NCBI GenBank assembly: GCA_026004495.1
Contig: BPJG01000001.1
Span: 277,133 to 341,132 of the forward strand
Direction: 5' to 3'
Length of the DNA: 64,000 nt
DNA from: Candidatus Parcubacteria bacterium
GTDB taxonomy: Bacteria > Patescibacteriota > Minisyncoccia > UBA6257 > HR35
The notes under the pieces were generated by a model that saw only the letters and a program-made list of their open reading frames with translations, did no database searches and was not told the origin of the DNA. The translations under genes and the position numbers were made by a program. Positions 18,038 through 64,000 of the stretch are shown here, one piece after another. How positions within the stretch are numbered: position 1 is the stretch's first letter; each line of letters begins with the position of its first letter.

Positions 18038-18040
18038 TTA

Positions 18041-18295
18041 TTAAAAATTGGGCACAAATATTTTAATTATTTCAAAAAATAATTCTCTTTTAATAAAAAT
18101 TATACCTAAAATTAAAATTCCTAAAATAATAAATAAAAGTGATATCTTTAAATCTGAGTAATTTTTATTTTGAAAATAAATTTTTATACCGAAATAAATT
18201 AAACTAAAAATCGAAATTAAAATAGCAAAAATTAAAAGATAATTTACTAAATTTACAAAAAAATTAAGAATTGGTTGCGTAAAATGAGAAAACAT
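18041..18295 (-). CDS. Small two-helix membrane protein (pilin-like)
   Basis: An 84-aa protein with the two-helix hairpin pattern of the array. Separated from the neighbouring gene by 3 nt. Confidence 0.45.
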   Translation of the reverse strand: MFSHFTQPILNFFVNLVNYLLIFAILISIFSLIYFGIKIYFQNKNYSDLKISLLFIILGILILGIIFIKRELFFEIIKIFVPNF

Positions 18296-18298
18296 TTA

Positions 18299-18574
18299 TT
18301 ATTGAAGAAAAGAAAAAATAATTAAAGGGATAGAAAAAGAGGCAATGATTAAAATAATTCCTAAAATAATAAAAATTAATTCATTATGCCAATTTTTACC
18401 TTGGGTAGATATATATTTAATACCAGCAACAATTAACAATCCTATACCTAAAATTAAGCCTATATTAAAAAAAATCCATAACAACCCCTCTATTTTACAT
18501 AAAAAATATTCTAGACCAGATAAATCACCGCAACCCACTTCTTTACCTATTTGAGCTAAAGCATAGAATGACAT
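18299..18574 (-). CDS. Small two-helix membrane protein (VirB2/TrbC pilin-like)
   Basis: A Cys pair (GCGD...FLCK) precedes helix 1. The hairpin is LLIVAGIKYISTQGKNW...ILGIILIIASFSIPLIIFSF. Total 91 aa. Confidence 0.5.
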   Translation of the reverse strand: MSFYALAQIGKEVGCGDLSGLEYFLCKIEGLLWIFFNIGLILGIGLLIVAGIKYISTQGKNWHNELIFIILGIILIIASFSIPLIIFSFLQ

Positions 18575-18575
18575 C

Positions 18576-20147: not shown

Positions 20148-20208
20148 AATATTTTTATTAATGCCAATAAATAAATTATAAATTCATTTTTAAATCTTTA
20201 AACTATAT

Positions 20209-20604
20209 CTATCTGGTTAAAGTAAATTCTATTCCTCTTACTAAACTAAAAGATAAAATTGTAATTATCGCGCCTATAATTGCCCATATTAAATATTTTT
20301 TAGCATTCTCATCATTTGGTTTAGTTGAAAAAAGAAATCCACTATATATTATAAATCCAACTGATAATAAAAGAGAAATTGTATAAATGAGAGTTAAAAT
20401 TCTATTAGCAAATATTAACAAACATCTACTTAATAACCCAGGTGGCACTGGATTACCTCTTAATACTTGTAAAATATCAAATGGCACACAGTTTATTTTT
20501 TGAGGAACAAACTGCAATGATTGAGCGTAAATATTTTCGATAATAGATAAGCTAATATACAAAAAAACTGGTAAAAAAATTAGATAAATATAATTATTTT
20601 TCAT
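20209..20604 (-). CDS. VirB2/TrbC pilin-like two-helix protein
   Basis: A Cys pair (CVPF...SRC), then the hairpin ending ...SFSLVRGIEFTLTR. The close paralog 18576-20147 ends its hairpin with ...FVRALEIGLTR. Confidence 0.5.
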   Translation of the reverse strand: MKNNYIYLIFLPVFLYISLSIIENIYAQSLQFVPQKINCVPFDILQVLRGNPVPPGLLSRCLLIFANRILTLIYTISLLLSVGFIIYSGFLFSTKPNDENAKKYLIWAIIGAIITILSFSLVRGIEFTLTR

Positions 20605-20605
20605 T

Positions 20606-20932
20606 TTAACCTATCGAACCAGTTGAGGCTATTCTTTCTATCAATAAAACTAATGAATAAGAAACGAGTGCTGATACAAGTCCAATGATTATCCAAATTA
20701 AATTCTTGCTATAATTCTTAAATTCTTGTGGACTAACGATTATCTTTAATCCTGTAATTAATATCATAATAATCGAAAAAGCTAATGACAGCCAAATCAA
20801 AATACTAAATACCCATCTAAATAGCAAAAGCAGACAGGGTAGAACATCATCACAAACCAAAGGAACTGGAGGATTATTTGGAGAGGTCAAGCCAAAGCGG
20901 CTATCAAATGGATAGTTAACCTGAAATAACAT
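20606..20932 (-). CDS. VirB2/TrbC pilin-like two-helix protein
   Basis: A Cys pair (VCDDVLPC), then two helices. The ORF ends 1 nt before the start of the next paralog. Confidence 0.5.
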   Translation of the reverse strand: MLFQVNYPFDSRFGLTSPNNPPVPLVCDDVLPCLLLLFRWVFSILIWLSLAFSIIMILITGLKIIVSPQEFKNYSKNLIWIIIGLVSALVSYSLVLLIERIASTGSIG

Positions 20933-20949
20933 AAAAACTTATTTTAATC

Positions 20950-21321
20950 TTATTGACCAAGTTGTCCAGTTTGAACAAATCTTGATACCAAAGAAACGAC
21001 TGCCCAAGAAATTAAGGAAATTACTAAACCAATAATACCATAAATTATGTAATTCTTTCCAGAAGACATATCTCCCTTAAAAATAATTAAAATTCCTGCA
21101 TAGGCGAAAAATATAACAGCAAAACCTAAAGCTATCCAAATTAATACCCTAAAAACTATTTGAAATATATTGGTGATTGTTGACCTAGGATTATCTTGAA
21201 TTAGCCCACTGTCTGGGTTATCTACGTCAAATTGGGGCAAATCTTGGCCCTTAATGTAAATGGGTAAAAATAAACCAATAAAAAGATATATTAAAAAGCT
21301 ATAAATTAATAATTTTCTCAT
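20950..21321 (-). CDS. VirB2/TrbC pilin-like two-helix protein
   Basis: A signal-like N-terminus, then the hairpin ALGFAVIFFAYAGILIIFKGDMSSGKNY...ISLISWAVVSLVSRF. Confidence 0.5.
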   Translation of the reverse strand: MRKLLIYSFLIYLFIGLFLPIYIKGQDLPQFDVDNPDSGLIQDNPRSTITNIFQIVFRVLIWIALGFAVIFFAYAGILIIFKGDMSSGKNYIIYGIIGLVISLISWAVVSLVSRFVQTGQLGQ

Positions 21322-32527: not shown

Positions 32528-35497
<2,970 letters not shown>

Positions 35498-42577: not shown

Positions 42578-43036
42578 ATGCAGCGTCTTAAAAAGATATT
42601 TGTAATTTTGATATTTTTAATATATTTTTATTATACCAATTATGTAATCTCACCAACTGTTGCTATTGTTAACCCCTTAACTATAGAAGAAAATATTTTC
42701 TTAGATAACAATAAATATAATTTTAAAAATAAAACAAATCAAAAATACATAGTAGTGCTTACGGGGTATTCATCCAGTCCAGATGAAACTGATGATGATC
42801 CCTGGATTACTGCTTCAGGTGAGTGGGTATCTGATGGAACAGTAGCTTCTAATTTTCTATCATTAGGAACTAAAATTAAAATTCCAGAAATTTTTGGAGA
42901 TAAGATTTTTGTTGTAAAAGATAGGATGAATAAAAGATATGATAATAAAAATCATATTGATGTTTGGTTTCCTACTAAAGAAGAAGCTCTTGTTTTAGGA
43001 AAAAAAATAACTCAAATAATTGTAATTTCAGATTAA
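42578..43036 (+). CDS. 3D-domain protein (MltA/RlpA-like lytic transglycosylase fold)
   Basis: Signal anchor. The C-terminal motif DETDDDPWITASGEW...KDRMNKRYDNKNHIDVWF carries the three-Asp signature. Confidence 0.6.
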   Translation: MQRLKKIFVILIFLIYFYYTNYVISPTVAIVNPLTIEENIFLDNNKYNFKNKTNQKYIVVLTGYSSSPDETDDDPWITASGEWVSDGTVASNFLSLGTKIKIPEIFGDKIFVVKDRMNKRYDNKNHIDVWFPTKEEALVLGKKITQIIVISD

Positions 43037-50173: not shown

Positions 50174-50781
50174 TGAAAGATATTTTTTATTCATATTTAG
50201 TTAATCCTATTATTTTAATATGCTTATATATTTTTTATTTCATAAAAGATGCCGGCTTAACAATTATAATAATAACTTTTTTTTTAAAAATAACACTTTT
50301 GCCTTTAAATTATATTATTTATCAAGAAGAAGAAAAGATTAAAAAGGTTAATAAAAAAATTAATGAAACTACAAAAAACATAAAAGATTTAGTTAAAAAA
50401 TCGGAGATAATATCTAAAATTTACAAAGAAGAAGGAATATCACCCTTTAAAAATCTTTTTCTCCAATTAATAAACTTACCTATTTTGATAGCTGTTTTTA
50501 TTGCTATTCCTCAGTTTTTAAATAAAATTAATAATTATTTCTTATTTAATTTTATGAATTTAAAATCTCCTAACATTACCTTAGGATTAATAGTTTTTAT
50601 GGCTCAATTATTATTAATTTTTTTCTTAACTGCTCCTGAACAAAGAAAGATCTCCTTATTTATCTCTTCACTTCTTGCTCCAATATTTTTTATTATTCCT
50701 TCAGGTTTATTGATTTATATTTTTGCTACTATTATATTTACTCTTTTAGAGCGAAAGGTTATCTTTGTTAATAAAGTATAA
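50173..50781 (+). CDS. yidC: YidC/Oxa1-family membrane insertase (short form)
   Basis: Conserved first-transmembrane-helix motif AGLTIIIITFFLKITLLPL. Multi-transmembrane protein of 202 aa. It follows rnpA. Confidence 0.65.
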   Translation: MKDIFYSYLVNPIILICLYIFYFIKDAGLTIIIITFFLKITLLPLNYIIYQEEEKIKKVNKKINETTKNIKDLVKKSEIISKIYKEEGISPFKNLFLQLINLPILIAVFIAIPQFLNKINNYFLFNFMNLKSPNITLGLIVFMAQLLLIFFLTAPEQRKISLFISSLLAPIFFIIPSGLLIYIFATIIFTLLERKVIFVNKV

Positions 50782-51876
50782 TTTAGCATCATTTCTGTTG
50801 TAAAAAATAATCCCTAGGGGCGTTAATTTAGGTTGGATGATATCAAAATCGCCGTCTATTTTCACTACTTGGAAAAAATCTTTTTGGGGATCATAAATTA
50901 TTAAATTATCATTAAATGATGACTTTAAATAATACCAATTTTCAATTTTGTTAAACCCTTGATCTTTAGGTACACCACAAATAAGCAATTCTTCGAAGGT
51001 ACACTTTTCTTTAATCGTACCAAAGGTAAATTCTTTACTGATGACATTATTTCTTCCATCAATTAATAATGACTTCCAAGAGTTTTCAATAAATGAAGCG
51101 AAAACTAAATCATTTTTATTAGTTATAAAACTCAAATATCTTTTAGGTGGGAAAATTAATTCTATACTTTTATTCATTTTTTTTAAATAAAGAGGTGAGG
51201 CAGGTGAATATTTCAAATTTTCAGCAATTAAAATTCCGTTAGTTAAAAAATCTATGTCAGGATTAAGAATAAATATATCCATAAAACGCGTTTCATTATC
51301 TTGAAATTTTGCTAAATAACCATTAGTAGTTAATCCTGAAATAAAAAGATAGGGGGTGTTTTGATAAAAAAATACCTTTTGAGTTAAGTAATTTAAAGAA
51401 TATTTTTTATCTTTTAAACGATCAATAAGATAAAATACATTTTTAGACTTTATAAAGAATCTATCGTTATTATTTGAGGGAAATAAAGCATAGATTATAT
51501 TTTCGTCCTTATATAATTCTTTATAAGATTTATCTTCAATATTATAAGTTCTTACTGTTTTAGATTGGGGGTCATAGGCATATACTTCGGGATAATTTAT
51601 ATTTGGAGAAATTAGGGGAAAGTCAAATAATAAAATTGGCTTTTTAGTAGTTTCCGTTAGCGAGGTTGTTGATATAATGTTTTCTAGGGTTGATGTTAGT
51701 GAGGGCAAATCTCTAGACTCTTTAATAGATTCTTCTTCTTTAATAGTAGATTCAGGTTCTTCTAAAAAAATAGTTTTTTCTGGTTTTTTAATAAAATATT
51801 CCTTATAAATTAAAATAACGAAAGCAATAAAAACTATTAAACCTAAACCAATAAAGATTTTTCTAATTAAATTCAT
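50746..51876 (-). CDS. Hypothetical membrane-anchored protein (last gene of the type IV secretion-like operon)
   Basis: A 376-aa ORF with an N-terminal transmembrane helix, a Ser/Thr-rich linker, and a beta-rich C-terminal region. Lies 6 nt downstream of the preceding gene. Confidence 0.45.
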   Translation of the reverse strand: MNLIRKIFIGLGLIVFIAFVILIYKEYFIKKPEKTIFLEEPESTIKEEESIKESRDLPSLTSTLENIISTTSLTETTKKPILLFDFPLISPNINYPEVYAYDPQSKTVRTYNIEDKSYKELYKDENIIYALFPSNNNDRFFIKSKNVFYLIDRLKDKKYSLNYLTQKVFFYQNTPYLFISGLTTNGYLAKFQDNETRFMDIFILNPDIDFLTNGILIAENLKYSPASPLYLKKMNKSIELIFPPKRYLSFITNKNDLVFASFIENSWKSLLIDGRNNVISKEFTFGTIKEKCTFEELLICGVPKDQGFNKIENWYYLKSSFNDNLIIYDPQKDFFQVVKIDGDFDIIQPKLTPLGIIFYNRNDAKLYFINKDNLSL

Positions 51877-51881
51877 TTAAA

Positions 51882-52520
51882 TTATTTTCTTAATTTTTTA
51901 ATTATTATAAAGCTTAATAAAGCTATAGTTAATAGCGATAACGCTGTTAAAATAATAATTTGGAAAAAATAATTTTGGGGTGGCGTAATTGTTGATATTG
52001 ATTGGGTCGATATATTATCGGTGTCTTGTTGAATAAATGTAGTTTGGGGATAATTAATGTTTTTAATATTTGGACAATCTAAGGGACACTTTTCCTCTTC
52101 TCCAGCTTCACATATATTGTTTTCGTTACAAACACTTATTGGCGATAAATCTAATTCTTCTTTTTTATTTTCTAACAAATTCTCTAATTCAACATAACCA
52201 AAATTAGAATAATTAGGTATGGCTATTATTTCAAAATTAGCCTCATTAGAAGGATTAAAAGTAGTTTCTTCAATTAAATTTCCTTTAATTGAAAAAACTT
52301 TTAATTTATAATTTCCGTTATCTGTTCTAATAATGGTTTCTTGGTTTTTATCTTTTGAAAAATCAATTGGTTTCTGATAATTAATTGAGATTTCATTCTG
52401 GTTTTTAATAAGATAAATTAAAATAAAATTATTATTTATTTCTTTTTCTTCTTCATTTAATATATAATCATCAGTCTCTAAATCTTCGGGCAAAATTGTT
52501 AATAGTTTATAATTTTCCAT
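51882..52520 (-). CDS. Hypothetical protein with a Cys-rich segment and a C-terminal transmembrane anchor
   Basis: A 212-aa ORF containing CNENNICEAGEEEKCPLDCPN and a C-terminal hydrophobic helix. Confidence 0.45.
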   Translation of the reverse strand: MENYKLLTILPEDLETDDYILNEEEKEINNNFILIYLIKNQNEISINYQKPIDFSKDKNQETIIRTDNGNYKLKVFSIKGNLIEETTFNPSNEANFEIIAIPNYSNFGYVELENLLENKKEELDLSPISVCNENNICEAGEEEKCPLDCPNIKNINYPQTTFIQQDTDNISTQSISTITPPQNYFFQIIILTALSLLTIALLSFIIIKKLRK

Positions 52521-52537
52521 TATTATAATTTTATATC

Positions 52538-53668
52538 TTATTTTTGATTTAATTTAATGTTGCCAATAATACAGACCTTAGCATAATCAGATTTTTTTTG
52601 ACCAAAACTATCTATCGCTTCTTTACCTATGCCAGCATAAAGATCTAACCATTTATCTTTTCCCCATATTTTGCCGCCTGAACCTGTATCAGTTATTATA
52701 AAAACATTATCTTTTATACCACAACTTACAGATTCGTATTCACCCCCCCCCTTTTTTCTTAAGCAGTCTATTATTTTAACTGCTTGATATTCACCATTTA
52801 CTGACCCTTTAAATACTGTACTTTCATTATCTCTGGCGGCTGTTTGACCGGGAATTACTGGTCCATAAGCTCCTCTAATATAATCATTAATTTCTGTTGA
52901 ACTGCTGATAATTAAATTTTCTGTAGTTGTTACATTTAAGGCACCTTCATAATGTTTTACTGATTCTTTTTGACTAGTTTCTGCTTTTGGGCAATTTTTT
53001 GTTCCTCTTCCTTCCATTTTAACCCAAGTAAATACCCAACCATCTTTGCACTTATCTAATTTTTTGCCAGACAACTTAGCAGTTTCAAGAATACCTTTGG
53101 CATTTAAAGGAGTTAAAATGCTTACAGTACCAGATGTTGTATTAATAATTCCCTTTCCTTGCATTGTTATATCTGATAAAAACTTATGTTTATTTGGTTC
53201 CTGTGGTAAGACAGGTGTATAATATTGAGTTGTTCTTATAGTTATAGGATTATTTATACAGGTTCGCTGAGATAAATCTTGTAATACTTTTTCATCTATA
53301 TTAGCAAGAGAAATATTAAAATTATTCCCGTTGATATTTAAATTTTGATTGTTTATAGTAAAATTGACTTTAATTACGTTGGTAGTTATTCTATAAACAA
53401 CAATTCGAGGATCAAAAATAAAAGGATTAATCCAATAAAGAATAGATCCTGAAACAAAAATAACAACTAAACCAATAATAGCGTTTCGCATCATACTTTT
53501 GCCCTCCATCTTAACATCAGGCACAACACTTAATAAATTCTTAAAAGCACCAAAAAGAAACATAAAAAAAGCCAACATTACAGCTAAAGCAACACCTAAA
53601 TTATATAAGCCCTGAAGACAGCTTTGAATAGAGTAACAATAAGAGTTAATAAATTCTTGGGGGTTCAT
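52538..53668 (-). CDS. Pilin-like two-helix N-terminus fused to a 3D-domain (lytic transglycosylase-like) C-terminus
   Basis: N-terminus: a Cys pair (SYCYSIQSC), then the hairpin GVALAVMLAFFMFLFGAF...AIIGLVVIFVSGSILYWINPF, matching the pattern of the 17201-21321 array. C-terminus: FIITDTGSGGKIWGKDKWLDLYAGIG resembles the 3D/MltA core (DTGGAI.G..IDLF). Confidence 0.55.
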   Translation of the reverse strand: MNPQEFINSYCYSIQSCLQGLYNLGVALAVMLAFFMFLFGAFKNLLSVVPDVKMEGKSMMRNAIIGLVVIFVSGSILYWINPFIFDPRIVVYRITTNVIKVNFTINNQNLNINGNNFNISLANIDEKVLQDLSQRTCINNPITIRTTQYYTPVLPQEPNKHKFLSDITMQGKGIINTTSGTVSILTPLNAKGILETAKLSGKKLDKCKDGWVFTWVKMEGRGTKNCPKAETSQKESVKHYEGALNVTTTENLIISSSTEINDYIRGAYGPVIPGQTAARDNESTVFKGSVNGEYQAVKIIDCLRKKGGGEYESVSCGIKDNVFIITDTGSGGKIWGKDKWLDLYAGIGKEAIDSFGQKKSDYAKVCIIGNIKLNQK

Positions 53669-54300
53669 TTTTTAATCATTATTTGATCAGAGGCTAATTC
53701 TTGGGAATTATCCAGATTATAAACCCTTAAATTTATCTTAATTTCTCCAGTTAAAGAACTTATATCCAATAGAAAAGTATTATAGTAATTAGTTTCATTC
53801 ACAGTCCAGACGTAAGCTAAATTATTAGAGGAAAAATTGTAAACTAATGGATAGAGTACTTCAGTTTTATTTAAATTATTTTCAGTTAATGGTAAGGCTA
53901 AGTTGTTATTTTTATCATATTTAGCAATTACAACTCGCGGAAGCTGTTTATTAGTAAAATAAAAATGCTTCTCTATCTCATAATTAAAATTTTTAGGGCT
54001 AAGAGTAACTATGCCTGATAATTTATTATTTATTTCTGGGATAAATAAAAAAGGTTTGTATGTTTTAATTTTTTCGTAATTATCACCTAAATCCACCTTC
54101 CATTCATATGACAATTCTTCGCTTGAATATTTTTTACCATTTATTAATATATAACCCTCAAGCCCAATTAACAATTCTTCTCTATTTTTTTTAAATGAAA
54201 AATATAAATTACTATCATCAACTTGATCTTGAGATTTTGCCTTTTGATAATTAATTAAAAATATAATTAAAAAAAATAAGAAAATTAATCTTTTAATCAT
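53665..54300 (-). CDS. Hypothetical secreted protein
   Basis: A 211-aa ORF with a signal peptide. It overlaps both neighbouring genes (4 and 8 nt), indicating operon coupling. Confidence 0.45.
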   Translation of the reverse strand: MIKRLIFLFFLIIFLINYQKAKSQDQVDDSNLYFSFKKNREELLIGLEGYILINGKKYSSEELSYEWKVDLGDNYEKIKTYKPFLFIPEINNKLSGIVTLSPKNFNYEIEKHFYFTNKQLPRVVIAKYDKNNNLALPLTENNLNKTEVLYPLVYNFSSNNLAYVWTVNETNYYNTFLLDISSLTGEIKINLRVYNLDNSQELASDQIMIKK

Positions 54301-54799
54301 TATTATATTTATAAGCTAAAATTTTAGGATAGATATAAAATAAAAATACAACTGATAAGGTTTCAATTGGTAGAGCATCAATAATCGCGCCAATAATAGG
54401 AATCAATTTAGTGGCGATAGAAACACTTAAAATAGATCTTATTATTCTGATAATTTTTTTGGCGTTATTTTTTATATCTTCAATATTCTTTTTAGCCAAT
54501 TTTCTTGCTCCATAATAAGAATAATCAAATTTATTGCTTTCTATCCAAAACCAAATTAAATAAGCAATATAAATTAAGCTTCCTATTATTCTTAATATCC
54601 AACCTACAATTCCTATGCTGGCTAAATCAATTAAACCAAAAATTATTCCTAGGACATCAACAAATAAAGCAAAAATTAATAAAATAAAAACACCACCATT
54701 ACCCCAAAACCAACCAACCTCTTCTTGGCTTTTAGGCAATTCATTTAAATAGTCTTTAACATTATTATTATTATTATTATTTGAATGAATAACTTCCAT
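54293..54799 (-). CDS. Small polytopic membrane protein (poly-Asn N-terminus, about 4 transmembrane helices)
   Basis: A 168-aa protein. The N-terminus has a run of seven consecutive Asn. Multiple hydrophobic helices follow. It lies immediately downstream of the VirB4-like gene. Confidence 0.45.
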   Translation of the reverse strand: MEVIHSNNNNNNNVKDYLNELPKSQEEVGWFWGNGGVFILLIFALFVDVLGIIFGLIDLASIGIVGWILRIIGSLIYIAYLIWFWIESNKFDYSYYGARKLAKKNIEDIKNNAKKIIRIIRSILSVSIATKLIPIIGAIIDALPIETLSVVFLFYIYPKILAYKYNND

Positions 54800-56590
54800 T
54801 TATTCTAAGGCTCTTTTAATAGCCAATAATTGTTCCGGCGTTGATTTAATAATTTGATCTTCGGCATATGAACCCAAAACATAAAGAGGAATTCTTTTAA
54901 ATCCAGCAATTAAAATACCTTTTCCTCTTTCTGATTGAAGCAGGAACATTTTTTCTCCTTCTGATAAGGAAAATACTTGTCCAATTAAATTAATAGTTGC
55001 TGGCGATTGTTTCATTAGAAAAACTATAGCAGCATTGGTAATAATAGGTTTGCCATAGGGAGAATTTAAAAAATCTTCAACATCTTGAGTAATAGTTGTG
55101 ATGGCTAATAAATACTTCCTGCCTCTTTTAATAGCATTAAGCAAAAAATTGGCCCCTGATTCATTTTTCATAATCCACCAAGCCTCATCTAAAATAACTA
55201 TTCTTTTTTTTCTTTGCCTTCTTATTTTATTCATTAAATCATTTAGAACCATATACATTCCTATTGGTCGTAATTCATCTTTTAAATCTCGAAAACCAAA
55301 AACAACTATTCTTTTTTCTAAATTAACATTTGTTTGTTGGTTAAGAAAACCGGAATAATTTCCTTGAGTATAAGGGTATAATTTTTCAGCTATATGTTTT
55401 CCTCCTTCAATACTCATCAAAACCCTCTCAAAGTCATTTAAGGTCGGAAATATTTCTATTTTAGCAAAATCAGAATCGGGAAAAATGTTAAAAGAAGTGT
55501 ATGTTTGACTTAAGGCTCTATCAACAATAGTAAGCTCTTCTGCAGTAAATTTATCGCCAATAATTATTTCCAGCAAACCTATAATATCAGCAATTTTTTC
55601 TTTATAAACCTCAGCTGGATCTTCGTTAGGTAAGGGAATTGGTAAATCTAAAGGATTAATTTTGTATTCAGATTTTAACGAAATAGGAATAAATGAGCCT
55701 CCGTAAATTTCAGCTATTGATTGATATTCATTTTCAGGATCCAAAACAATCACTTCCTGATTCATCATTAAACTCCTCATTATTTCTAACTTAGCTGTAT
55801 AACTTTTACCTGAACCAGAACGAGCAAAAATAACCATATGAGCATTTTCAAAGGCAAATCTATCAAATATAACTAAAGAATTATCGGCTAAATTTATTCC
55901 TAATAGAATACCATTTTCCATTGATAATTCGGAAGAAATAAAAGGAAAAAATGAACTGGCTGTTGAAGAGTTCATTAAATAGTTAACATTAAGCTCATCT
56001 AAGCATAGAGGCAGGGTAGAATTAAAAGCCTCTTGTTGTTCAAATACAACTGGCTTAGCTAAAATTAAACTACTCTCTAAAATTTTTAAAATCTTTTTTT
56101 CTTTTATTGATAATTCCTCCGTATTATCAGAAAAAATAGTTAAATAGACACCAACGTTTAAAATTTTTTCTGTACCTTGAACAATGGCATCTCTTAAAAA
56201 TTCAATATTTTGATAAGCGGTTTCTAATTCAGGAGATCTAGCCATTCCTCTTTCTTGTCGTTCATTAATTTGACTTTCTATTCTTAAAAGTTGTTTTTCC
56301 AATTGTTTTAAGATAGTAGAAGCATCACGAGGAATAAAAAATAAGGATAAATTAAAAATTTCTTCTAGAGAAATAATTTTTTCTAACCAGCCAGCAAATA
56401 AAAATTTAGGATAATTAATAATAATTAAAGTTTTTGCGTAAATCTCTCCTATTTGGAAATCAGAGACATTAAAAATTACGCCCGGCGGAGCAATTATATT
56501 TTTTATTTGATTAAATTTATTATCCTCTTTATTTTCCTGATTTTGTTGATTGTTCTTTATTTTTTTAATAAAAGGAAAATTTAATTTCAT
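54800..56590 (-). CDS. VirB4/TraC/TrbE-like type IV secretion ATPase (AAA_10 / DUF87-type)
   Basis: Walker A VIFARSGSGKSYTAK. Walker B RIVILDEAWWIM; the DEAW motif is characteristic of VirB4-family ATPases. Total 596 aa. Confidence 0.7.
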   Translation of the reverse strand: MKLNFPFIKKIKNNQQNQENKEDNKFNQIKNIIAPPGVIFNVSDFQIGEIYAKTLIIINYPKFLFAGWLEKIISLEEIFNLSLFFIPRDASTILKQLEKQLLRIESQINERQERGMARSPELETAYQNIEFLRDAIVQGTEKILNVGVYLTIFSDNTEELSIKEKKILKILESSLILAKPVVFEQQEAFNSTLPLCLDELNVNYLMNSSTASSFFPFISSELSMENGILLGINLADNSLVIFDRFAFENAHMVIFARSGSGKSYTAKLEIMRSLMMNQEVIVLDPENEYQSIAEIYGGSFIPISLKSEYKINPLDLPIPLPNEDPAEVYKEKIADIIGLLEIIIGDKFTAEELTIVDRALSQTYTSFNIFPDSDFAKIEIFPTLNDFERVLMSIEGGKHIAEKLYPYTQGNYSGFLNQQTNVNLEKRIVVFGFRDLKDELRPIGMYMVLNDLMNKIRRQRKKRIVILDEAWWIMKNESGANFLLNAIKRGRKYLLAITTITQDVEDFLNSPYGKPIITNAAIVFLMKQSPATINLIGQVFSLSEGEKMFLLQSERGKGILIAGFKRIPLYVLGSYAEDQIIKSTPEQLLAIKRALE

Positions 56591-57217
56591 TTATAAATTA
56601 TTGATTAATTCTTCAAATATATTTAATGGTGCCATTCCCCATCGCAAATTAGGATTATATAATTCATAAAATAATTGTAATATTTCGCCTGTTTTTAACC
56701 TAATAGGAATTAGGCCCGTAATTGATAGTTTTTCTGAAATATAAGAAACTCTGGTTTCTAGTTGTTCTAATTTTTGTCTATAATTTTCATCCTTTTTATA
56801 ATCTTTTTTACCAAACTTACCTCCAATTGAAACAACTTCACTTTGATAAGGAATAATCAAATAAAAAATTTTCTTCATAACATTATGGGTCTCAATATAA
56901 TCCTTTATAAATTTAATATACTCTTCTAATTGAACTTTTATTAATGGTTCTGTTTCTTCTTCTAGTCTTTCTTTTAGAGTATTAAGATATTTTTCAATAT
57001 AAGCCAATCTAGAAATAACTAATATTTGTAAGTTAAAATCAATCCCATCTAAAATTTCTTTAAAATTACCAATAGTAATTTCTCTTTCTTTTTCTCCTAA
57101 AATATTAAAATTTATACCTGGAACAACTAAAATTGCCCTTAAACTACCATCTTCCATTATAATTATGTCATCTCGAATATCTTCTATTTTTATTAAATTA
57201 GTTGTTAAATCACTCAT
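56591..57217 (-). CDS. Hypothetical soluble protein (operon member)
   Basis: A 208-aa ORF directly abutting both neighbouring genes. Confidence 0.45.
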   Translation of the reverse strand: MSDLTTNLIKIEDIRDDIIIMEDGSLRAILVVPGINFNILGEKEREITIGNFKEILDGIDFNLQILVISRLAYIEKYLNTLKERLEEETEPLIKVQLEEYIKFIKDYIETHNVMKKIFYLIIPYQSEVVSIGGKFGKKDYKKDENYRQKLEQLETRVSYISEKLSITGLIPIRLKTGEILQLFYELYNPNLRWGMAPLNIFEELINNL

Positions 57218-57724
57218 TTATTTTTTAGGCAATTTGGGAATAGGAAAATTGATATAAGGATCTTGAGGATTATAACCATGTTTATGAGCATATTGAATTA
57301 ATTTTGAAAAATGAATTTTTTTAACCTCTTTTTCGATATCTAACTTCTGATTATTCAATTCTTGTTCTAATAACTTAAAATATTTTTGAACCTCTGGTAC
57401 CTTAATAACGTTTTTCATTATTTGAAAATTTCCCCTCCAAATAAATCTTCTATTGGAAATTAATATTTTTATCAATTTTGGCAAAAAACTTATAATATAC
57501 TTATTATTAATTTTAAGCCATCCTAAAATAATAGCTAAAAAAAAACTTATAAATAATACAATTATGGCAATTAAACCAGGCAAAAGTTTATAAGCTGCGT
57601 AAGAAACTAAAAAAGCGCCAAAAAGTAAAAATAATTGCTTTAATGTAATTCCTACGGGTCCAATTAAAATTTTATCTTCAACCGTGATAAATTGTGGAAC
57701 ATTGAATCTCATTTTTAATTTCAA
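57218..57724 (-). CDS. Two-helix membrane protein, putative VirB3 / TcpE / PrgI-like
   Basis: A 168-aa protein with two adjacent hydrophobic helices near the N-terminus. It lies upstream of the VirB4-like ATPase, the usual position of VirB3. Confidence 0.35.
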   Translation of the reverse strand: MKLKMRFNVPQFITVEDKILIGPVGITLKQLFLLFGAFLVSYAAYKLLPGLIAIIVLFISFFLAIILGWLKINNKYIISFLPKLIKILISNRRFIWRGNFQIMKNVIKVPEVQKYFKLLEQELNNQKLDIEKEVKKIHFSKLIQYAHKHGYNPQDPYINFPIPKLPKK

Positions 57725-57739
57725 AATTAAATTATAATT

Positions 57740-58531
57740 TTAATATTGAGATAAATCAATTATTCCTTCTTCTGGCGGTGATTTTTTCTGTTGTTTAATT
57801 ATTATTATTGATGATTTATCTTCACTTTCTTTTTTAAGTTTTTCCATTTCTTCTTTTGAGGATTGAGTATTGGTTTTTAACCCCTCTTCTTTTAATTGAG
57901 GAATATTAAATGTTAATTTTTCTTCGTCTTTATCCTTGCCTAATTCATCAATTGATTCCTTAAATAATTTTTTAATAGATTCTTTATTTGAGGATTCCAG
58001 ACCTTCTGTTTTTAATTTAGGGATTTCAATTTTAATAGTTTTTACCTCATCTGGTTTTTGAATATTAATTGCCGAAACAATATTTTCTTTTTCTTTTCTA
58101 GGTGGAATTACTTTTTGAAGATTTAAAATTTTCCCAGGTTTTGTTTTTGCTTTAATCTCTTGAATTCTTTTAAGTAAATTGGCAATTTCAGGAGGGGAAG
58201 ATTTAATTTCTTTAGTTTCTTTTTCTTTTTGCCATAAAATATTTATTTTAGGAATAAATTGAGAAAATAAAATATAAGCCATTTGATTAGCATCATTTTC
58301 ATTAAGACTTAATCTTTTTATAATTTCATCTTTAAGTTCCATAATACTTTTAGGTTCAAAAACTTTAAAAATTAAATCCTGAAGAAGATAAATAAAATCA
58401 ATCTCTTTATTTTCATTAATTTCAAATTTTTTTAAATATTCTTCTAAATAATCATAATATTCATTAGAATAAATAAAATTTCTAACATTCGTTGGAGAAT
58501 TAATATAATTATGACTAAAACTAACTGTCAT
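57740..58531 (-). CDS. Hypothetical Lys/Glu-rich protein with an internal repeat
   Basis: A 263-aa ORF. It contains the repeated segments IPKLKTEGLESSNKESIKKLFKES and IPQLKEEGLKTNTQSSKEEMEKLKKES. Confidence 0.45.
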   Translation of the reverse strand: MTVSFSHNYINSPTNVRNFIYSNEYYDYLEEYLKKFEINENKEIDFIYLLQDLIFKVFEPKSIMELKDEIIKRLSLNENDANQMAYILFSQFIPKINILWQKEKETKEIKSSPPEIANLLKRIQEIKAKTKPGKILNLQKVIPPRKEKENIVSAINIQKPDEVKTIKIEIPKLKTEGLESSNKESIKKLFKESIDELGKDKDEEKLTFNIPQLKEEGLKTNTQSSKEEMEKLKKESEDKSSIIIIKQQKKSPPEEGIIDLSQY

Positions 58532-58620
58532 TATATAATATTATTATAAATTTATTTTTTCTTTTTAATCAAAAAATATTGGTGCTTTTAGTCGTTTTAT
58601 GTTTTTATTATTTGATTATA

Positions 58621-60768
58621 TTATTGATTATTATTATTTGTTTCTTCATTTTTTTCTATAGTACTTGTGCTTGGTTTCTCAACTGGTCTTGTTTGAAGTG
58701 CTGATTGAAGTTGAGATATTAATTTATTTAATTCTTCAGAGGGTACATCTTTTATATCTACTTGAATATTTAAATTATTCATTATTTCACTTAATTCATT
58801 TCTTAATCTATCTGCAGTTAATGACATTACATCTAAGCCACCGGTTATATATCTTTGTAAATAAGCTTCTAATATTTGTTCTCTTTCTCTTTCGGCTTCT
58901 ATTAATTGTCTTAAAATATTATCCATAATTTCATTAAATACTCTATAATGAGGAGTTTTCTTTATAGTATTTTCTTCACTCTGAAGAATGGTTTCTAATC
59001 CCCACTCTCTTATTTTTTTAATATTATTAGGATCGGAAAAGAAATTAATTTTTCCTCCCCGCGTCATATTATTGATTAAAAATTGAACCAATTCTCCTCT
59101 TTCTTTTTCTTGAATTTGAAGTAATCTTTCTAAATCTTCTAAGGTAACTCTATTGAAATCTAGACTGGATGCTAATTTTTGCATTGCTGTTCTTTTATCT
59201 CCCCTGGCTACATCATCAAAAGAGCATTTAACTCTTTGGCAAATAATTTTTCTTGCCTTAATATCATTTTGGAGTTCAGGTGATTGACTATAAATTTTAA
59301 ATATTTCATCTGGTGATTTATCTCTACTTACAAGCCGGGTAAAATTATATAAATCTTCACCCTTTAATTTTTTTATAGCTTCAGCAATTTCATTTAAGTT
59401 TTTATATTTATAGACTTCCCACATAGCTTCAATTGCCTCCTTACTTCTTTCTTTTACTGGTTTTTGCATTCTTTCTCCTGTTCCCCTTATCCTTTTAGCT
59501 ATCAATGCCCAAGTCGGACCTCGCTCGGCAACTGTATTAGCAATTTTATTTAATTTTTCACCTAATCCATAAAGAGGTTTTCTAGCTAATGATTTTCCTC
59601 CTTCAGCTATTAAGGAACCTGTTTTAAGCCAAGTCCATTTAGTAAAATCATAACCAGCCTTTGAGAATCTTCCGCCTAATCTCAGGGCTAATATTGTGAC
59701 TATTAAATAATAAATTATAATAATTAAGATTCTACTAGAATAAACAAAAGCTGGAGCCAAAAGAGAAATTAATGCTCCAATACCTGTTGTTGGTTGATTT
59801 TTAGTACTATCTTGAATATCACTTATCATAAAAATATCATTAATAATTTGATTAGCGCCAGCAGTTGAGGCAAAAAGAAAAATTCCTATTGAAACTAATA
59901 AAATTAAAATCAAAATATTTATATTCCAGGTAAAAAATGTTTGCCACCATTGATCAAAATATCTTTTTTGATTAGGCAGAATATAAGCTATACAAGCTAG
60001 GGGAAGTAAACCAACTAAAAAGGAGATAATAAAGAATTTTCCTACGGCAATACCGGCAAACATAGCCATTATTACTGATCCAATAAAACTCATAAGTAGA
60101 AGAAATAAATTAAAAGCTAAATCAGTGACAACTTTCGTCATATCTATTTGTTCTCCTGTAAGATTTATATTTGATATCTGTTCGTTAATTTGGTTCCCTA
60201 TCTCTTTAGCTTTATCACCAATAAGCAGAGCCATTGAAAGGTATAAAGTGTTACCAAAATCGGTTTGATAAATATTATTATCCTTAGTTGAAACTTCACC
60301 TACAATTTGAATAACAGCTTTAGTAAGGTGCCAAAAGAAAGAAAAAAATTCTTTAGCCAAAACAAAAGTAAAATTAATAAGAAAAGCAACTATTAAAATT
60401 CCGATTAATAATCTTCGAGCTTCATCTTCTTTATTTAAAATAAATTGTAAGCCAGCATATAGACTTAGAAAAATTAAAACTACATAAGCAATATTTTTAA
60501 AAAATTCCCATAAAATAGGTGCAACTGTTAAATGGCTAAAAGGATTAAGAAGAATAAAAGTGTTAATAATAAATGCTGAAAGTTGAGCAATGGCATCAAA
60601 AAATAATTTTACAGCTGGAAGAATAAATCCTAAGATGTAATTTATTAAAGTCAATAAAAACTCAGTGATTTTGCCCCCAAAGTACCAAAAAGCTCCTACT
60701 AATAAAGCTCCAGCAAGCAATGGTATAATAGCACCTCTTTGAGATAAATGCATTTTATTTAATTTCAA
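58621..60768 (-). CDS. Large polytopic membrane protein, putative VirB6/TrbL-like channel component with a cytoplasmic C-terminal domain
   Basis: A 715-aa protein. About 8 hydrophobic helices fill the first 420 aa. A charged, coiled-coil-like C-terminus follows. Its start overlaps the upstream giant ORF by 14 nt. Confidence 0.45.
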   Translation of the reverse strand: MKLNKMHLSQRGAIIPLLAGALLVGAFWYFGGKITEFLLTLINYILGFILPAVKLFFDAIAQLSAFIINTFILLNPFSHLTVAPILWEFFKNIAYVVLIFLSLYAGLQFILNKEDEARRLLIGILIVAFLINFTFVLAKEFFSFFWHLTKAVIQIVGEVSTKDNNIYQTDFGNTLYLSMALLIGDKAKEIGNQINEQISNINLTGEQIDMTKVVTDLAFNLFLLLMSFIGSVIMAMFAGIAVGKFFIISFLVGLLPLACIAYILPNQKRYFDQWWQTFFTWNINILILILLVSIGIFLFASTAGANQIINDIFMISDIQDSTKNQPTTGIGALISLLAPAFVYSSRILIIIIYYLIVTILALRLGGRFSKAGYDFTKWTWLKTGSLIAEGGKSLARKPLYGLGEKLNKIANTVAERGPTWALIAKRIRGTGERMQKPVKERSKEAIEAMWEVYKYKNLNEIAEAIKKLKGEDLYNFTRLVSRDKSPDEIFKIYSQSPELQNDIKARKIICQRVKCSFDDVARGDKRTAMQKLASSLDFNRVTLEDLERLLQIQEKERGELVQFLINNMTRGGKINFFSDPNNIKKIREWGLETILQSEENTIKKTPHYRVFNEIMDNILRQLIEAEREREQILEAYLQRYITGGLDVMSLTADRLRNELSEIMNNLNIQVDIKDVPSEELNKLISQLQSALQTRPVEKPSTSTIEKNEETNNNNQ

Positions 60769-63700
60769 TCTTTTTTGGCTTAATAAAATTAATTGTCTCG
60801 AATATATTGCCTGTTAAATTTTTAACGATTAAAGCTAAAAACTTACCAAAATTATTTGCTGATCCTCCATCACCTCCATCTTCTTCTAGGGGCGGACCCG
60901 AAGAACCACTACTTTGATTTCTTATTTGAGCATTAATAGAAGCTTCTAATTCAATAATTGAATTATTATAATCCTCACATAACGAAGAAAGTTCGGTATC
61001 GATATTATTTAATTCTTCTATTATTTTTTGTATTTCTTGATAAACATTATTTATTTGATTTTGATCAATTCCTGATTGTTGGAAAATCTTATCCATTTCA
61101 TTGTCATGTTGTTGCTTTAATTTAGTTAATTGAGTATTTAATTGATTTATTTGATTTTGAGTGTTAATAATATTATTTTTGTTTATAAAATTAAATAAGT
61201 CTTTAAAATTAGATGAAATTCTTAATAAAAGTCGAAATACTTCTCGAGTATTAAGTTGAATTGAATAATTATTAGGACCTTGTAAAGTAAAGGAATGATT
61301 TAAGTCAGACAATTTTGGATCACTGGTATTGTTAATAAATTTTAAAGTTCTTGAAGCAATCTCTTCTAAATTAGTAAAAAAAGTATTTAATCTATCAATA
61401 TCTGGTTTAGTCATGGTAGCAGTACCGTTAAGGAAATTGTTTAATTGACTAGTAACTGCAGTTAATAAATTCTGTTGATTTTCTGAAACAGCTGCTGATT
61501 GCGGAATGCTATATAAAATAGCAAAAATTTTAGCTGACATATCTGCAATCACAAAATCTGGATGTCGTTCAATATTAATAGACGTTCTTTTTGACCCAAA
61601 AACATCTTCTGTTATAATTATCGATGCTAAATTTGTATTAAAAAAAGAGCCAATATTATTAAGCCCTGCTATTGCATTAACTAATTCAGGATAAAAATGG
61701 TCATAAAAACTTAACCTTATTGAGGAGCCTAAGCTTAAAATTTTTATATTTGAGCCATACTCCGAATTACTAAATGGAATATTAAATATAGGCTCATGAT
61801 AATAATACCTAGGATCAGGATGAATGTCGTTTACATTGGCATTAAGAAAAAGATTGCTAATTTTAGGATTGTTAACATCTCTTAAAATTTGATCTATTTT
61901 TTCTTGAATTTGTTTTTTTGTTTGCTCAATGTCTGATGAAAGTTTATTAATTTCTTGATTTAACCTATCAATTTCTTTAGTTATAGTTGAATTATTTAGG
62001 TTATTTAAAGTAGTAATTAATTGATTTAATGTTGTACTGGCTAAGTTGAGGTGTTGTTGAGTGTTAGAACTTAATTCGTTTAACCTTGATGAGATATTCT
62101 CTAGTCCATTAGAATAATTATTAAGTTGACCCAAGAATAACCCTGGATTGTTAAGAAATGCTATATAATTTGTAGTTATGGTGGTAATAGCATCTGTTAT
62201 GGTAGCATAATAAGCTGAGTTTTTATTTTGTAAATTAGGTATAAGCTCAATAATTTGTTTAATTTCGATTAATTTATTTTGAACGTTAAATGTATTCATT
62301 CCTAAACCAAGTGCTCTGTTGTCAAAAACAACATTTTGACAGACTTCTTTTAGCCCAGTAACTCCAGAATTATTTAATTTGTCACAATCTTTTTGTTGTT
62401 GAGAGTATATTTTGTCCAAATTATTTTGTATAAATAATTCTTGGTTTTCTCCTTTATTAAAATCAGCAAAGCCTTTATCGATTAAATTAAATAAACTACT
62501 GTTTATCCATCCCCTGATAAAGGTTGCAATAACATTACCTGAAGAAGATTGATTAAGAAAATCAAATGTATTTTTTGAAATTTTTTCTCGTAAATCTTCA
62601 TAGGTAGCAATTGGATTTTTAATTTCGTCCTTTTTAATACAAAAACTACTTTCACCAGTGATTCCACTCTTTCTTTGCTGGTCAGCAATTTTTTTATATT
62701 CGTTAATGGTATTTTGTAAGCTAGCTATTTTATTATTATCAGGGTTTGATTTTTTTTGTTCTTCTTCTAATTGAGCTTGAAGGGTTTCTAATTTAGCTTC
62801 AGCATCAGTTTTAAGACAGGCAGTTTTAGGCATAAATGTTGTTCCGCCTGGTTCATTAGAATAGGCATTAAATGTTGATAATTCTTCATCTAATTCTTGA
62901 AATATTTTAGCTGTTGAAGTATTAAAAATTAAATTACAATTAGCAATTTCAATAGCCTGATTAATAATTTGCTCTTGATCAATTAGTTTATTTTGATCAA
63001 GATTATTTCTTGTTTGTCCCAAAAGATTCCTTAAGTTAATAATTTTAAAAGGATTAGCAAAGAAATTTCCTAATTTAAGGGCTAAATTTTTTTCATTATT
63101 TTCTGCCCTAGCCAAGATTTGATTAGTTGGTTTAATATAGGCAGTTAAAGTAGCTGAACTTTTTTGAACTATAACCGAAGGACTTAAGCCTAAGGCTGTA
63201 TATATGTGAAAGGTATTGGGATCATTAGGATCACAATTAGGTTTATTTAAAATACTAAATCTATTTGTTTTAGTTATCGATCTAAAAATTTTTTTTGCTG
63301 CCTTAGGATCTTTTGATTTATCCATAAATGCACTCGCTTTAGCATTTAGTTCCTTTAATAAGTTATAAGCACAAGCTTTTACTTCAAAGGGTAAACATTG
63401 AATATTTTCATCTTGAGTATAAGGTTTTAATAATTTATCAACAGCTCGAGTATAGGCTTGACTCATCCTTAAGTATCTATATTGTTGAATATCAGGAATA
63501 AAATTCTTGGATATTTTATTATAGACCAAATTTTCTAAAGTAGATTTTAATTTAAATTTAAAATAATCTTGGGAATCACTAAGTCCTAATTTTATTCCTG
63601 TTTCAAGTTGGGTAACAAAATTTTTTGCTGTTTCTTCAATGCTTTTGCCAATTAATCCTTGGGAACCCTTATCATCAGTAGGCACACTACCACCACCAAA

Positions 63701-64000
63701 TAATCCTCCCAATCCTCCCAAAAGATTTCCTAAAAAATTACCAACAATACTAGCAATTTTAGACATGCCCTCCATTATTAATTGATTTTTTACCATTTCA
63801 ATAAATGTTTTAAAATTAAAATTAAAATTACCCTTACCAACACCAGGCATTGGTAGGGGTAGATAACCATAATCAGGAACAGCATTTTCTAAGCACTCAA
63901 TAACTTGATTTAAATTATTAACTATAGTAGGAAAGTTTCTTGAAATACAACCTGTATTAATCCCAGATGACCCAACACAAGATCTAAGATTATTAAAATC
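60755..64000 (-). CDS. Very large protein (>1080 aa, N-terminus beyond the window) with a Gly-rich segment and coiled-coil/Asn-rich regions; first visible gene of the type IV secretion-like operon
   Basis: The track ORF 60755-63850 begins at an internal ATG. Hand translation of the minus strand over 63851-64000 (DFNNLRSCVGSSGINTGCIS...YGYLPLPMPG) shows the frame stays open to the window edge. It contains GNLLGGLGGLFGGG and long Q/N/L-rich heptad-like stretches. Confidence 0.55.
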   Translation of the reverse strand, partial: DFNNLRSCVGSSGINTGCISRNFPTIVNNLNQVIECLENAVPDYGYLPLPMPGVGKGNFNFNFKTFIEMVKNQLIMEGMSKIASIVGNFLGNLLGGLGGLFGGGSVPTDDKGSQGLIGKSIEETAKNFVTQLETGIKLGLSDSQDYFKFKLKSTLENLVYNKISKNFIPDIQQYRYLRMSQAYTRAVDKLLKPYTQDENIQCLPFEVKACAYNLLKELNAKASAFMDKSKDPKAAKKIFRSITKTNRFSILNKPNCDPNDPNTFHIYTALGLSPSVIVQKSSATLTAYIKPTNQILARAENNEKNLALKLGNFFANPFKIINLRNLLGQTRNNLDQNKLIDQEQIINQAIEIANCNLIFNTSTAKIFQELDEELSTFNAYSNEPGGTTFMPKTACLKTDAEAKLETLQAQLEEEQKKSNPDNNKIASLQNTINEYKKIADQQRKSGITGESSFCIKKDEIKNPIATYEDLREKISKNTFDFLNQSSSGNVIATFIRGWINSSLFNLIDKGFADFNKGENQELFIQNNLDKIYSQQQKDCDKLNNSGVTGLKEVCQNVVFDNRALGLGMNTFNVQNKLIEIKQIIELIPNLQNKNSAYYATITDAITTITTNYIAFLNNPGLFLGQLNNYSNGLENISSRLNELSSNTQQHLNLASTTLNQLITTLNNLNNSTITKEIDRLNQEINKLSSDIEQTKKQIQEKIDQILRDVNNPKISNLFLNANVNDIHPDPRYYYHEPIFNIPFSNSEYGSNIKILSLGSSIRLSFYDHFYPELVNAIAGLNNIGSFFNTNLASIIITEDVFGSKRTSINIERHPDFVIADMSAKIFAILYSIPQSAAVSENQQNLLTAVTSQLNNFLNGTATMTKPDIDRLNTFFTNLEEIASRTLKFINNTSDPKLSDLNHSFTLQGPNNYSIQLNTREVFRLLLRISSNFKDLFNFINKNNIINTQNQINQLNTQLTKLKQQHDNEMDKIFQQSGIDQNQINNVYQEIQKIIEELNNIDTELSSLCEDYNNSIIELEASINAQIRNQSSGSSGPPLEEDGGDGGSANNFGKFLALIVKNLTGNIFETINFIKPKKIEIK

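Follow-up and report, generated by a model that had tools for sequence, protein, structure and literature searches.

A predicted MltA-like lytic transglycosylase fused to a VirB2-type pilin module in a type IV secretion-like operon of Candidatus Parcubacteria

The fusion gene, its operon and its pilin-type N-terminus

The window analysed in this work is a stretch of 64,000 nucleotides from Candidatus Parcubacteria bacterium (assembly GCA_026004495.1, contig BPJG01000001.1, positions 277,133 to 341,132 of the forward strand), in which the gene at 52538-53668 is predicted to encode a pilin-like membrane hairpin fused to a peptidoglycan hydrolase, within an operon resembling that of a type IV secretion system (T4SS). 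The 376-aa product, in which no signal peptide was found, is identical to the NCBI entry "hypothetical protein KatS3mg094_321" from a metagenome-assembled genome of Candidatus Parcubacteria (634-kb contig). The gene is located two genes downstream of that for the VirB4 ATPase, and its ATG shares the sequence ATGA with the stop codon of its upstream neighbour (start/stop overlap). This position, hereafter the T4SS slot, showed synteny in at least 20 loci; the gene order was identical in loci L001-L003, L007, L009 and L015 (operon plus yidC-rnpA-dnaA-dnaN), and the synteny held down to orthologues of about 40% protein identity. Domain scans of the operon proteins detected no other hydrolase domain, no coupling protein and no relaxase. 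The placement of the fusion inside a T4SS-like operon, as stated in an original prediction made from the DNA sequence, was thus borne out: the operon, which is chromosomal and vertically inherited, is conserved, and the fusion is the only recognisable peptidoglycan hydrolase in it.

According to a published description, Patescibacterial T4SSs are of the monoderm type, are encoded close to dnaA and have VirB2-like pilins; a relaxase is usually absent and so, in most cases, is a recognisable VirB1 (PMC12102498). The operon of the window matches this description. Within 46970-63850 the whole operon adjoins yidC, rnpA, dnaA and dnaN, and on account of these neighbours it is placed at the replication origin. 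The coordinates of all features are collected in Table 1.

Over residues 14-80 the product matched the T4SS_pilin family PF18895 (E=8e-6, 26.3 bits, narrowly missing the curated cut-off of 26.6). The same family was matched by 12 of 12 full-length orthologues (best E=1.8e-8), in all of which C11 and C17 are invariant, and by paralogues at up to 40.5 bits. In an AlphaFold (AF2) model of the fusion built from the 12 orthologues, the N-terminus consisted of helices at residues 14-46 and 50-80, and both the hydropathy peaks and the net-positive loop KNLLSVVPDVKMEGKSMMRN fitted a two-helix hairpin of the VirB2 type. Both ends of this hairpin probably lie outside the cytoplasm, as in VirB2 pilins, and the N-terminal tail (residues 1-17) would then be extracytoplasmic. 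The linker that precedes the sub-domain at residues 97-140 was modelled with low confidence (predicted local distance difference test, pLDDT, <50 at residues 91-94). At 376 aa, with a C-terminal extension of 290 aa, the protein does not have the format of a small polymerising pilin. All complete proteins with this module sub-type bore a C-terminal extension of about 180-290 aa, the short ones being truncations, and when the 95-aa module was used by itself in a word-index search, only truncated genes were retrieved. The original assignment of a pilin-like N-terminus was confirmed by the occurrence of T4SS_pilin in the fusion, in all 12 orthologues and in members of a separate array of pilin genes, and the conservation of the fusion in relatives by the orthologues themselves, each of which retains the PF18895 match.

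The array in question comprises the seven genes at 17201-21321, with which the N-terminus had been said to share a Cys pair and a two-helix pattern. PF18895 matched four of its members at 14.8-28.9 bits, just one of them (20209-20604, 28.9 bits) exceeding 26.6, and one additional member matched TrbC/VirB2. The Cys pair was found immediately ahead of helix 1 in four of the seven array proteins. The proposed likeness therefore stands in so far as the family is the same and the Cys pair recurs in 4/7, but because direct identity was just 12-23%, the link, as judged from sequence comparison, is one of family and fold and not of close paralogy. Two array members are large. The product of 18576-20147 (523 aa) has its hairpin in mid-protein (residues 182-238) with about 285 aa behind it, and that of 17201-18037 (278 aa) has its hairpin at the N-terminus, followed by a C-terminal domain with Cys; no Pfam match was obtained for either extension, and both proteins may be further pilin-cargo fusions.

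Table 1. Features of the fusion gene, its operon and related loci (coordinates of the window, except where a locus is named).
Feature	Position	Strand	Remarks
Fusion of pilin module and MltA-like lytic transglycosylase (predicted), whole gene	52538..53668	(-)	376 aa
N-terminal tail, residues 1-17	53618..53668	(-)	C11/C17; Cys pair invariant in orthologues
T4SS_pilin PF18895 match, residues 14-80	53429..53629	(-)	two-helix membrane hairpin; net-positive loop 47-58
Constant module, residues 17-96	53381..53620	(-)	cassette breakpoint at its 3' end; counterpart of the probable gene-conversion tract of other genomes
Sub-domain (beta-hairpin and helix), residues 97-140	53249..53380	(-)	poorly conserved
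MltA-like (GH102-like) catalytic region, residues 141-376	52541..53248	(-)	six invariant Cys
RTTQYYTPV motif	53210..53236	(-)	cf. MltA FTGYYTPV; T147 = T99, Y149 = Y101
3D signature FIITDTGSGGKIWGKDKWLDLYAGIG, residues 323-348	52625..52702	(-)	D327 = MltA D297, D342 = MltA D308
Downstream partner gene	51882..52520	(-)	212 aa; type A N-domain (~120-130 aa), Cys-rich stalk, C-terminal transmembrane helix
Downstream partner genes in strains	L019:3929-4603, L022:4033-4689		
Array of seven VirB2/T4SS_pilin-like genes	17201..21321	(-)	distant paralogues of the module
YuiC-like 3D/double-psi beta-barrel protein	42578..43036	(+)	152 aa; free-standing; of the fold class of the catalytic barrel
Eleven-gene T4SS-like operon	50746..63850	(-)	synteny kept in relatives
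VirB4 ATPase	54800..56590	(-)	596 aa; directly behind the VirB4 N-domain reading frame
VirB4 N-domain, separate reading frame	56591..57217	(-)	208 aa; NCBIfam VirB4 models, residues ~5-175
PrgI/VirB3-like	57218..57724	(-)	domain match
VirB6-like protein	58621..60768		

The enzyme region and its relation to MltA

The mean pLDDT of the fusion model was 86.4, and values exceeded 90 over the greater part of residues 100-376. In a Foldseek search of the PDB, its ten top-ranking matches were all MltA-family structures (E from 3e-7 to 3e-3), led by 2pi8_B (E=3e-7, probability 1.0), and the alignments with MltA comprised 220-340 aligned columns. Escherichia coli MltA and its GH102 relatives (PDB 2pi8, 2pic, 2gae, 6qk4, 7esj) were the best and only significant structural match, with the YYTPV and D-x-G...D motifs in alignment. 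In the hhalign comparison with E. coli MltA, the aligned fusion segment was VFIITDTGsGGKIWGKDKWLDLYAGIGKEAIDSFG, and the sequence TDTG...WLDLYAGIGKEA was paired with LDVGG... of the enzyme; the pairing of RTTQYYTPV with FTGYYTPV was read off the motif itself, which is outside the part covered by hhalign. Among the 12 orthologues T147, Y149 and P152 were invariant, as were D327, D342 and all eight Cys of the fusion. In MltA, D308 is the catalytic acid, D297 contacts the substrate's N-acetyl group, and the Thr and Tyr residues orient the catalytic Asp (YuiC structure paper, PMC4499186). The expectation of an MltA/3D-type enzyme fold at the C-terminus was upheld by the prediction, MltA accounting for the ten best PDB matches and the catalytic residues being conserved. 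The 3D domain itself had been placed in the last 90 aa; the motif is indeed there, at residues 323-348, but the enzyme region extends over about 235 aa (~141-376) and is not a 90-aa domain. According to the model it is akin to the whole of MltA, a double-psi beta-barrel into which a second domain is inserted, and not to a bare 3D domain.

The fusion differs from MltA in that the N-terminal part of domain A is replaced, the distance from YYTPV to QG(S/K)G is reduced by about 35 residues and the first Asp of the 3D motif is often Asn in the fusion family, and the kinship is detected neither by phmmer nor by hmmsearch. MltA is, moreover, an outer-membrane lipoprotein of diderms, whereas the fusion enzyme belongs to a monoderm and would be held in place by a pilin-like hairpin. 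Pfam 3D matched just 1/12 orthologues, and a more distant protein of the T4SS slot (L048) cleared its cut-off (24.0 versus 23.8 bits). NCBIfam and PHROGs gave no match for the enzyme domain, and an exhaustive phmmer search with residues 96-376 against 1.84 billion representatives retrieved four proteins only, of which one was a fragment of 71 aa and the other three were full-length pilin fusions belonging to this family. As far as such sequence searches reach, the enzyme domain is without detectable relatives outside the fusion family. Among the GTDB species genomes, the pilin module was present in five only and its MltA-like form in three only.

The free-standing gene at 42578-43036 had been credited with the same 3D signature as the fusion. 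Its homologues are named "3D domain-containing protein" by JGI and NCBI. The profile of its family retrieved YuiC only from the PDB (E=0.066, whole domain), and its model (pLDDT 84) matched YuiC with a Foldseek E of 7e-5 and a root-mean-square deviation of 2.4-2.7 Å, as well as MltA and other double-psi barrels. It belongs to the minimal type represented by the Bacillus subtilis YuiC/Sps 3D proteins (PDB 4wjt, 4wlk), which have a barrel and an Asp pair like those of the fusion. YuiC, a secreted protein, is reduced to the barrel and lacks the inserted domain, whereas the fusion matches full-length MltA and has a membrane hairpin. Direct homology between 42578-43036 and the fusion was rejected in pairwise comparison, in which no significant similarity was obtained and only the D...D motif was in register. 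The common signature thus holds at the level of fold and motif, but not as pairwise sequence similarity. In the 42578-43036 family the first Asp of the 3D motif is nearly always Asn (N92), like in most orthologues of the fusion. The neighbours of this gene, 43028-44692 (-) and 44735-46798 (+), encode a PilB-type T2SSE ATPase and a class A penicillin-binding protein, and are kept in L001 and L002.

Reuse of the module, probable gene conversion and cassette exchange

Proteins sharing only the first ~95 residues with the fusion (54-80% identity) were found to bear other C-terminal domains. These were CHAP (P0014), Peptidase_C39_2 (P0017, P0020) and a LAS/hedgehog-type metallopeptidase-like domain (P0013, P0015, P0016, P0018, P0019), the profile of the latter matching the Sonic hedgehog N-domain with E ~0.004 and M15C weakly. 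The module-peptidase proteins have a leader peptide and match PF18895; their genes occupy one orthologous locus in five genomes, between the genes for a class II aminoacyl-tRNA synthetase and D-Tyr-tRNA deacylase (aaRS-Dtd slot). A metagenome scan with the module alignment yielded 37 additional loci. In the T4SS slot, where the proteins have no leader, the module was followed by the MltA-like domain (10), a domain designated "X" (5), Pfam 3D (1, L048) and two other unnamed domains. In the aaRS-Dtd slot, where a leader is present, it was followed by C39_2, by LAS/M15-like domains or by VanY/Peptidase_M15/M15_4 (46-58 bits, cut-off 25), and every nameable domain in this slot was a peptidase. Besides the MltA-like region, at least five domains (CHAP, C39-like, LAS/M15-like, VanY/M15 and "X") are thus partners of the module. 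With breakpoints that fall at the 3' end of the module, this result strongly supports the earlier suggestion that the pilin fold is reused here as an anchor or recruitment module.

Domain "X" (~240 aa) shares both the pilin module and the operon slot (L015:6001-7023, L019:2944-3948, L016:1-760), and had no Pfam, PDB or PHROG match. A reading of it as SLT-like, from "ES...YKTG" noticed by eye, was unsupported, since hhalign against E. coli Slt70 was negative. Yet other unnamed domains are joined to the module in L046/L047 and L049. A conserved open reading frame of 47 aa lies on the opposite strand directly after the pilin-peptidase gene of the aaRS-Dtd slot (L005:8942-9085 (-), L006:9085-9228 (-)), and is present regardless of the peptidase cassette.

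The module copies of the two slots were compared at the DNA level. Over 72 codons their identity was 98% in JBEQAR, 98% in JAUQQN and 92% in JANXCM. Of the conserved degenerate positions, 96-97% had the same codon in both slots in JBEQAR and JAUQQN, as compared with 79% in JANXCM. When genomes were compared with one another, the module showed 66-87% nucleotide identity and 44-76% identical codons. Two additional lineages gave cross-slot identities of 95.7% and 99.5%, and the overall range within a genome or lineage was 91-99.5%; some pairs from the same sample reached only ~81%, and these possibly do not belong to one genome. The tract, which has sharp ends and flanks of ~30% identity, runs from the codon for the second Cys to about codon 90-98, and the two slots of JAUQQN agree without interruption over about 215 bases. 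Because the copies within a genome are near-identical in DNA and the tract boundaries are sharp, this indicates that the module is homogenised by gene conversion between the two loci. An assembly artefact behind the identical copies is unlikely, the loci being syntenic in independent SPAdes and MEGAHIT assemblies. Both module loci of JAUQQN are on one contig, 190 kb apart. In the genome of the window, the fusion and P0013 (KatS3mg094_599) agreed at 79/80 positions over residues 17-96 and were unrelated outside, a comparison made at the protein level only. Among orthologues, the module was the most conserved part, with a mean pairwise identity of 0.70 as compared with 0.45 for the enzyme.

Exchange of the C-terminal part was evident from pairs of closely related loci. 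L019, which carries "X", and L022, which carries the MltA-like domain, were 99.0% identical over 3246 bp, the identity ending exactly at the end of the module; a wholly different middle block followed (1060 versus 1146 bp), and the next 1845 bp were again 99.8% identical. The replaced block consisted of the enzyme domain together with the first ~120 codons of the downstream gene, the protein of which was identical from the Cys-rich stretch "ICNENNICEAGEENLCPLDC" through the C-terminal transmembrane helix. The left breakpoint was the same in the comparison of L034 with L008. In the aaRS-Dtd slot, the identity of L027 (C39_2) and L051 (M15_4) was 95.5% as far as the module reaches and 94.7% from immediately past the stop codon; the swap is limited to the domain, the cassette ends at the stop codon, and no covarying neighbour gene was found at this slot.

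The downstream partner gene of the T4SS slot followed the enzyme in kind. In 22 loci of this slot, all 16 MltA-type genes were followed by a type A N-domain and all six X-type genes by a type B N-domain (covariation 22/22). Type A lacks a signal peptide and has a conserved ILPE(D/E)-type motif near the N-terminus (start M..K(I/L)L.ILPED.E), and type B has a clear signal peptide. Common to both types are the stalk and the transmembrane helix, for which the two N-domains would seem to need opposite export routes, a topological puzzle.

Proposed function and relation to known systems

The position and the predicted fold together are best accommodated by a T4SS-dedicated, VirB1-like, membrane-anchored peptidoglycan lytic transglycosylase, a reading to which a probability slightly above one half (about 0.55) is assigned. 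The hairpin would be inserted with both termini outside and the positively charged loop inward, an orientation in which the eight invariant Cys fit an extracytoplasmic location. With both hairpin ends outside, the enzyme would consequently be tethered outside the cell membrane through the flexible linker. D342 would act as the general acid in the cleavage of the bond between N-acetylmuramic acid (MurNAc) and N-acetylglucosamine, with formation of 1,6-anhydro-MurNAc, as in MltA. The common module would dock the glycan cutter of the T4SS slot and the peptide cutter of the aaRS-Dtd slot at the same site of T4SS or pilus assembly, and the N-domain swapped along with the enzyme would be its cognate partner, either a regulator or an inhibitor.

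VirB1 and the Gram-positive hydrolases PrgK, TraG of pIP501, CwlT and TcpG are likewise encoded in T4SS operons just after VirB4 and tethered to the membrane. The fusion differs from these VirB1-type enzymes, which have GH23/SLT, GH73, CHAP, NlpC/P60 and M23 domains and ordinary transmembrane or signal anchors. Gram-positive VirB1-like hydrolases combine a glycan cutter and a peptidase in one protein (summarised in PMC12102498), whereas here there are two proteins with one common module, and the pair would supply both of the activities held elsewhere in a single polypeptide. No description of an MltA-like domain or of a pilin-type anchor for VirB1-type hydrolases was found in the literature. 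The expression "VirB1 analogue", already used in the original prediction, is drawn from position and fold, and either the cell's own wall or that of a host may be the target. Since the modelled fold is MltA-like and not the GH23/SLT lysozyme-like one, the relation to VirB1 is, on the model, that of an analogue and not of a homologue.

Several points weigh against this reading. With regard to the anchor, the T4SS_pilin score of the fusion protein itself is marginally below the Pfam cut-off. With regard to the enzyme, the global template-modelling score of the model against MltA was ~0.3, a low value to which the extra N-terminal parts and a hinge between two domains may contribute; the hhalign match between the fusion and MltA was weak (probability 2.7%, E=0.017 in a single comparison); Pfam 3D was matched only weakly, over residues 324-359 (E=0.059, 14 bits, cut-off 23.8); and neither phmmer nor profile hmmsearch of the PDB gave a relevant match for the enzyme domain. 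The first Asp of the 3D motif (D261 of MltA, D280 here) is Asp in 4/12 orthologues and Asn in 8/12. With regard to the partner, the N-domain that follows MltA-type enzymes has no signal peptide and the one that follows X-type enzymes has one, so that the partner may lie on the same side of the membrane as the enzyme or on the other. A housekeeping role in punching holes does not obviously explain the presence of different cassettes between 99%-identical flanks, and the whole basis of the reading is sequence, predicted structure and comparative genomics.

The alternative that fares best, which we regard as possible although clearly the less probable, is that of a host-directed effector borne by the pilus. 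The module would then be a tag for assembly or delivery, VirB4 would extract the module protein from the membrane into the T4SS pilus as a minor or tip subunit, the hydrolase, displayed on the pilus, would breach the wall of the bacterium that hosts these epibionts, and the producer would be shielded by the downstream N-domain, acting as an immunity-like inhibitor. Polymorphic effectors are similarly built, their N-terminal module being constant and their C-terminal enzymes variable. The enzymes are exchanged between strains with 95-99.8% identical flanks, the covariation of enzyme type and downstream N-domain is perfect, and the module is both more conserved than the enzyme and homogenised between loci. 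In the Saccharibacteria, the T4SS of S. epibionticum, which has no coupling protein and no relaxase, is essential for epibiotic growth, and lysozyme-like/Cys-protease and M15B-like genes, also essential, adjoin its virB4 (PMC10633639). A Bdellovibrio MltA-like enzyme is secreted and acts on the walls of prey (PMC10127604); it is a soluble protein that is not known to carry a pilin module or to belong to a T4SS, and it offers an analogy only. The turnover of cassettes and the covarying partner are better explained by a host-directed effector than by a VirB1-like role. A globular extension of ~290 aa is nevertheless hard to fit in a helical pilus, save at low stoichiometry or at the tip, and no such pilus has been observed in the lineage. 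The aaRS-Dtd slot, where the cassette ends at the stop codon, has no immunity-like partner, and the MltA-type partner has no signal peptide.

The likeness to polymorphic toxins (Rhs, CdiA, WapA) and to the effector-immunity pairs of the X-T4SS extends to a constant N-terminus, C-terminal swaps at a conserved junction and a linked downstream element. In the present case, however, the nameable cargo consists of peptidoglycan hydrolases, the constant part is a pilin hairpin, and the linked element belongs to a membrane protein as one of its domains and is not an immunity gene of its own. A polymorphic effector system of the Patescibacteria, in which a VirB2-type hairpin is the constant T4SS module and interchangeable hydrolase cassettes open the host wall, is put forward as a tentative proposal with the odds rather against it. 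If true, glycan cutters with partner domains of their own in the T4SS slot and peptidases in the second slot would be displayed on or at the pilus, gene conversion would keep the modules identical so that both enzymes fit the same machine, and cassette turnover would follow the wall chemistry of the host.

That the protein is a general autolysin, in which the hairpin is a lineage-specific anchor for enzymes of growth and division and the operon position has no meaning, appears unlikely. Paralogues do lie among housekeeping genes (aminoacyl-tRNA synthetase, D-Tyr-tRNA deacylase), the operon adjoins dnaA and yidC, and small genomes require some autolysins. However, the exact T4SS slot is kept down to ~40% protein identity with a start/stop overlap with the upstream gene, the pilin family of the anchor is otherwise found in T4SS loci in these bacteria, and the conservation of the anchor goes far beyond the needs of a plain transmembrane anchor. 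Least probable is a non-catalytic module that has lost its activity and binds glycan strands as a spacer or adhesin: the Asn at the first 3D position in 8/12 orthologues and the extreme divergence, with no sequence relative outside the family, would suit it, but the equivalent of the catalytic Asp (D342) is invariant together with D327, T147 and Y149, and in the widespread YuiC-like family of 42578-43036, too, the first position is as a rule Asn.

The Patescibacterial VirB2-like PF18895 genes reported previously (Quinonero-Coronel 2025, PMC12102498; Wang 2023, PMC10633639) belong to the same family and have the same T4SS context near dnaA. The pilins described there are small, ~100-140 aa, and neither report mentions enzyme fusions, gene conversion affecting the module or an exchange of cassettes. 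Surveys based on hidden Markov models would count the fusion gene as a VirB2 homologue, and what is scored as a "VirB2 pilin" can carry an enzyme. Full-text literature searches brought to light no account of fusions between pilins and hydrolases, of gene conversion of a pilin module or of such cassettes in Patescibacteria. A 2026 preprint on pili of the candidate phyla radiation ("Pam pilus") proved to be unrelated, its pilins being immunoglobulin-like and of the donor-strand type.

In the one genetically tractable member of the Patescibacteria the T4SS is essential for epibiotic growth, and according to surveys no VirB1 can be recognised in the majority of these systems (PMC10633639, PMC12102498). 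If a VirB1-like role applies, the fusion identifies the missing wall-cutting component for one Paceibacteria-type lineage, as one of a set of wall hydrolases that are modular, recombine and are linked to the T4SS through a common pilin module. The pilin fold as a targeting module would then be a natural example of reuse, and the fusion offers handles on the role of the T4SS at the cell-cell interface.

Some further observations concern the window and its relatives. The window is AT-rich (GC 20-29% outside rRNA) and contains a 23S rRNA gene, eight tRNA genes, dnaA, dnaN, rnpA and yidC. The complete 23S rRNA gene stands alone at 32533-35487 (-), no 16S or 5S rRNA was detected within the 64 kb, and the rRNA genes appear unlinked. 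In L009:4642-5672 (JANXCM SKYB72) the gene of the T4SS slot appears to be interrupted; its product P0021 ends at 141 aa and tblastn finds the MltA-like part downstream, for which a frameshift, a pseudogene or an assembly error are possible explanations. The split of VirB4 into two reading frames also occurs in L001-L003, where the small one has a Pfam TraC-like match.

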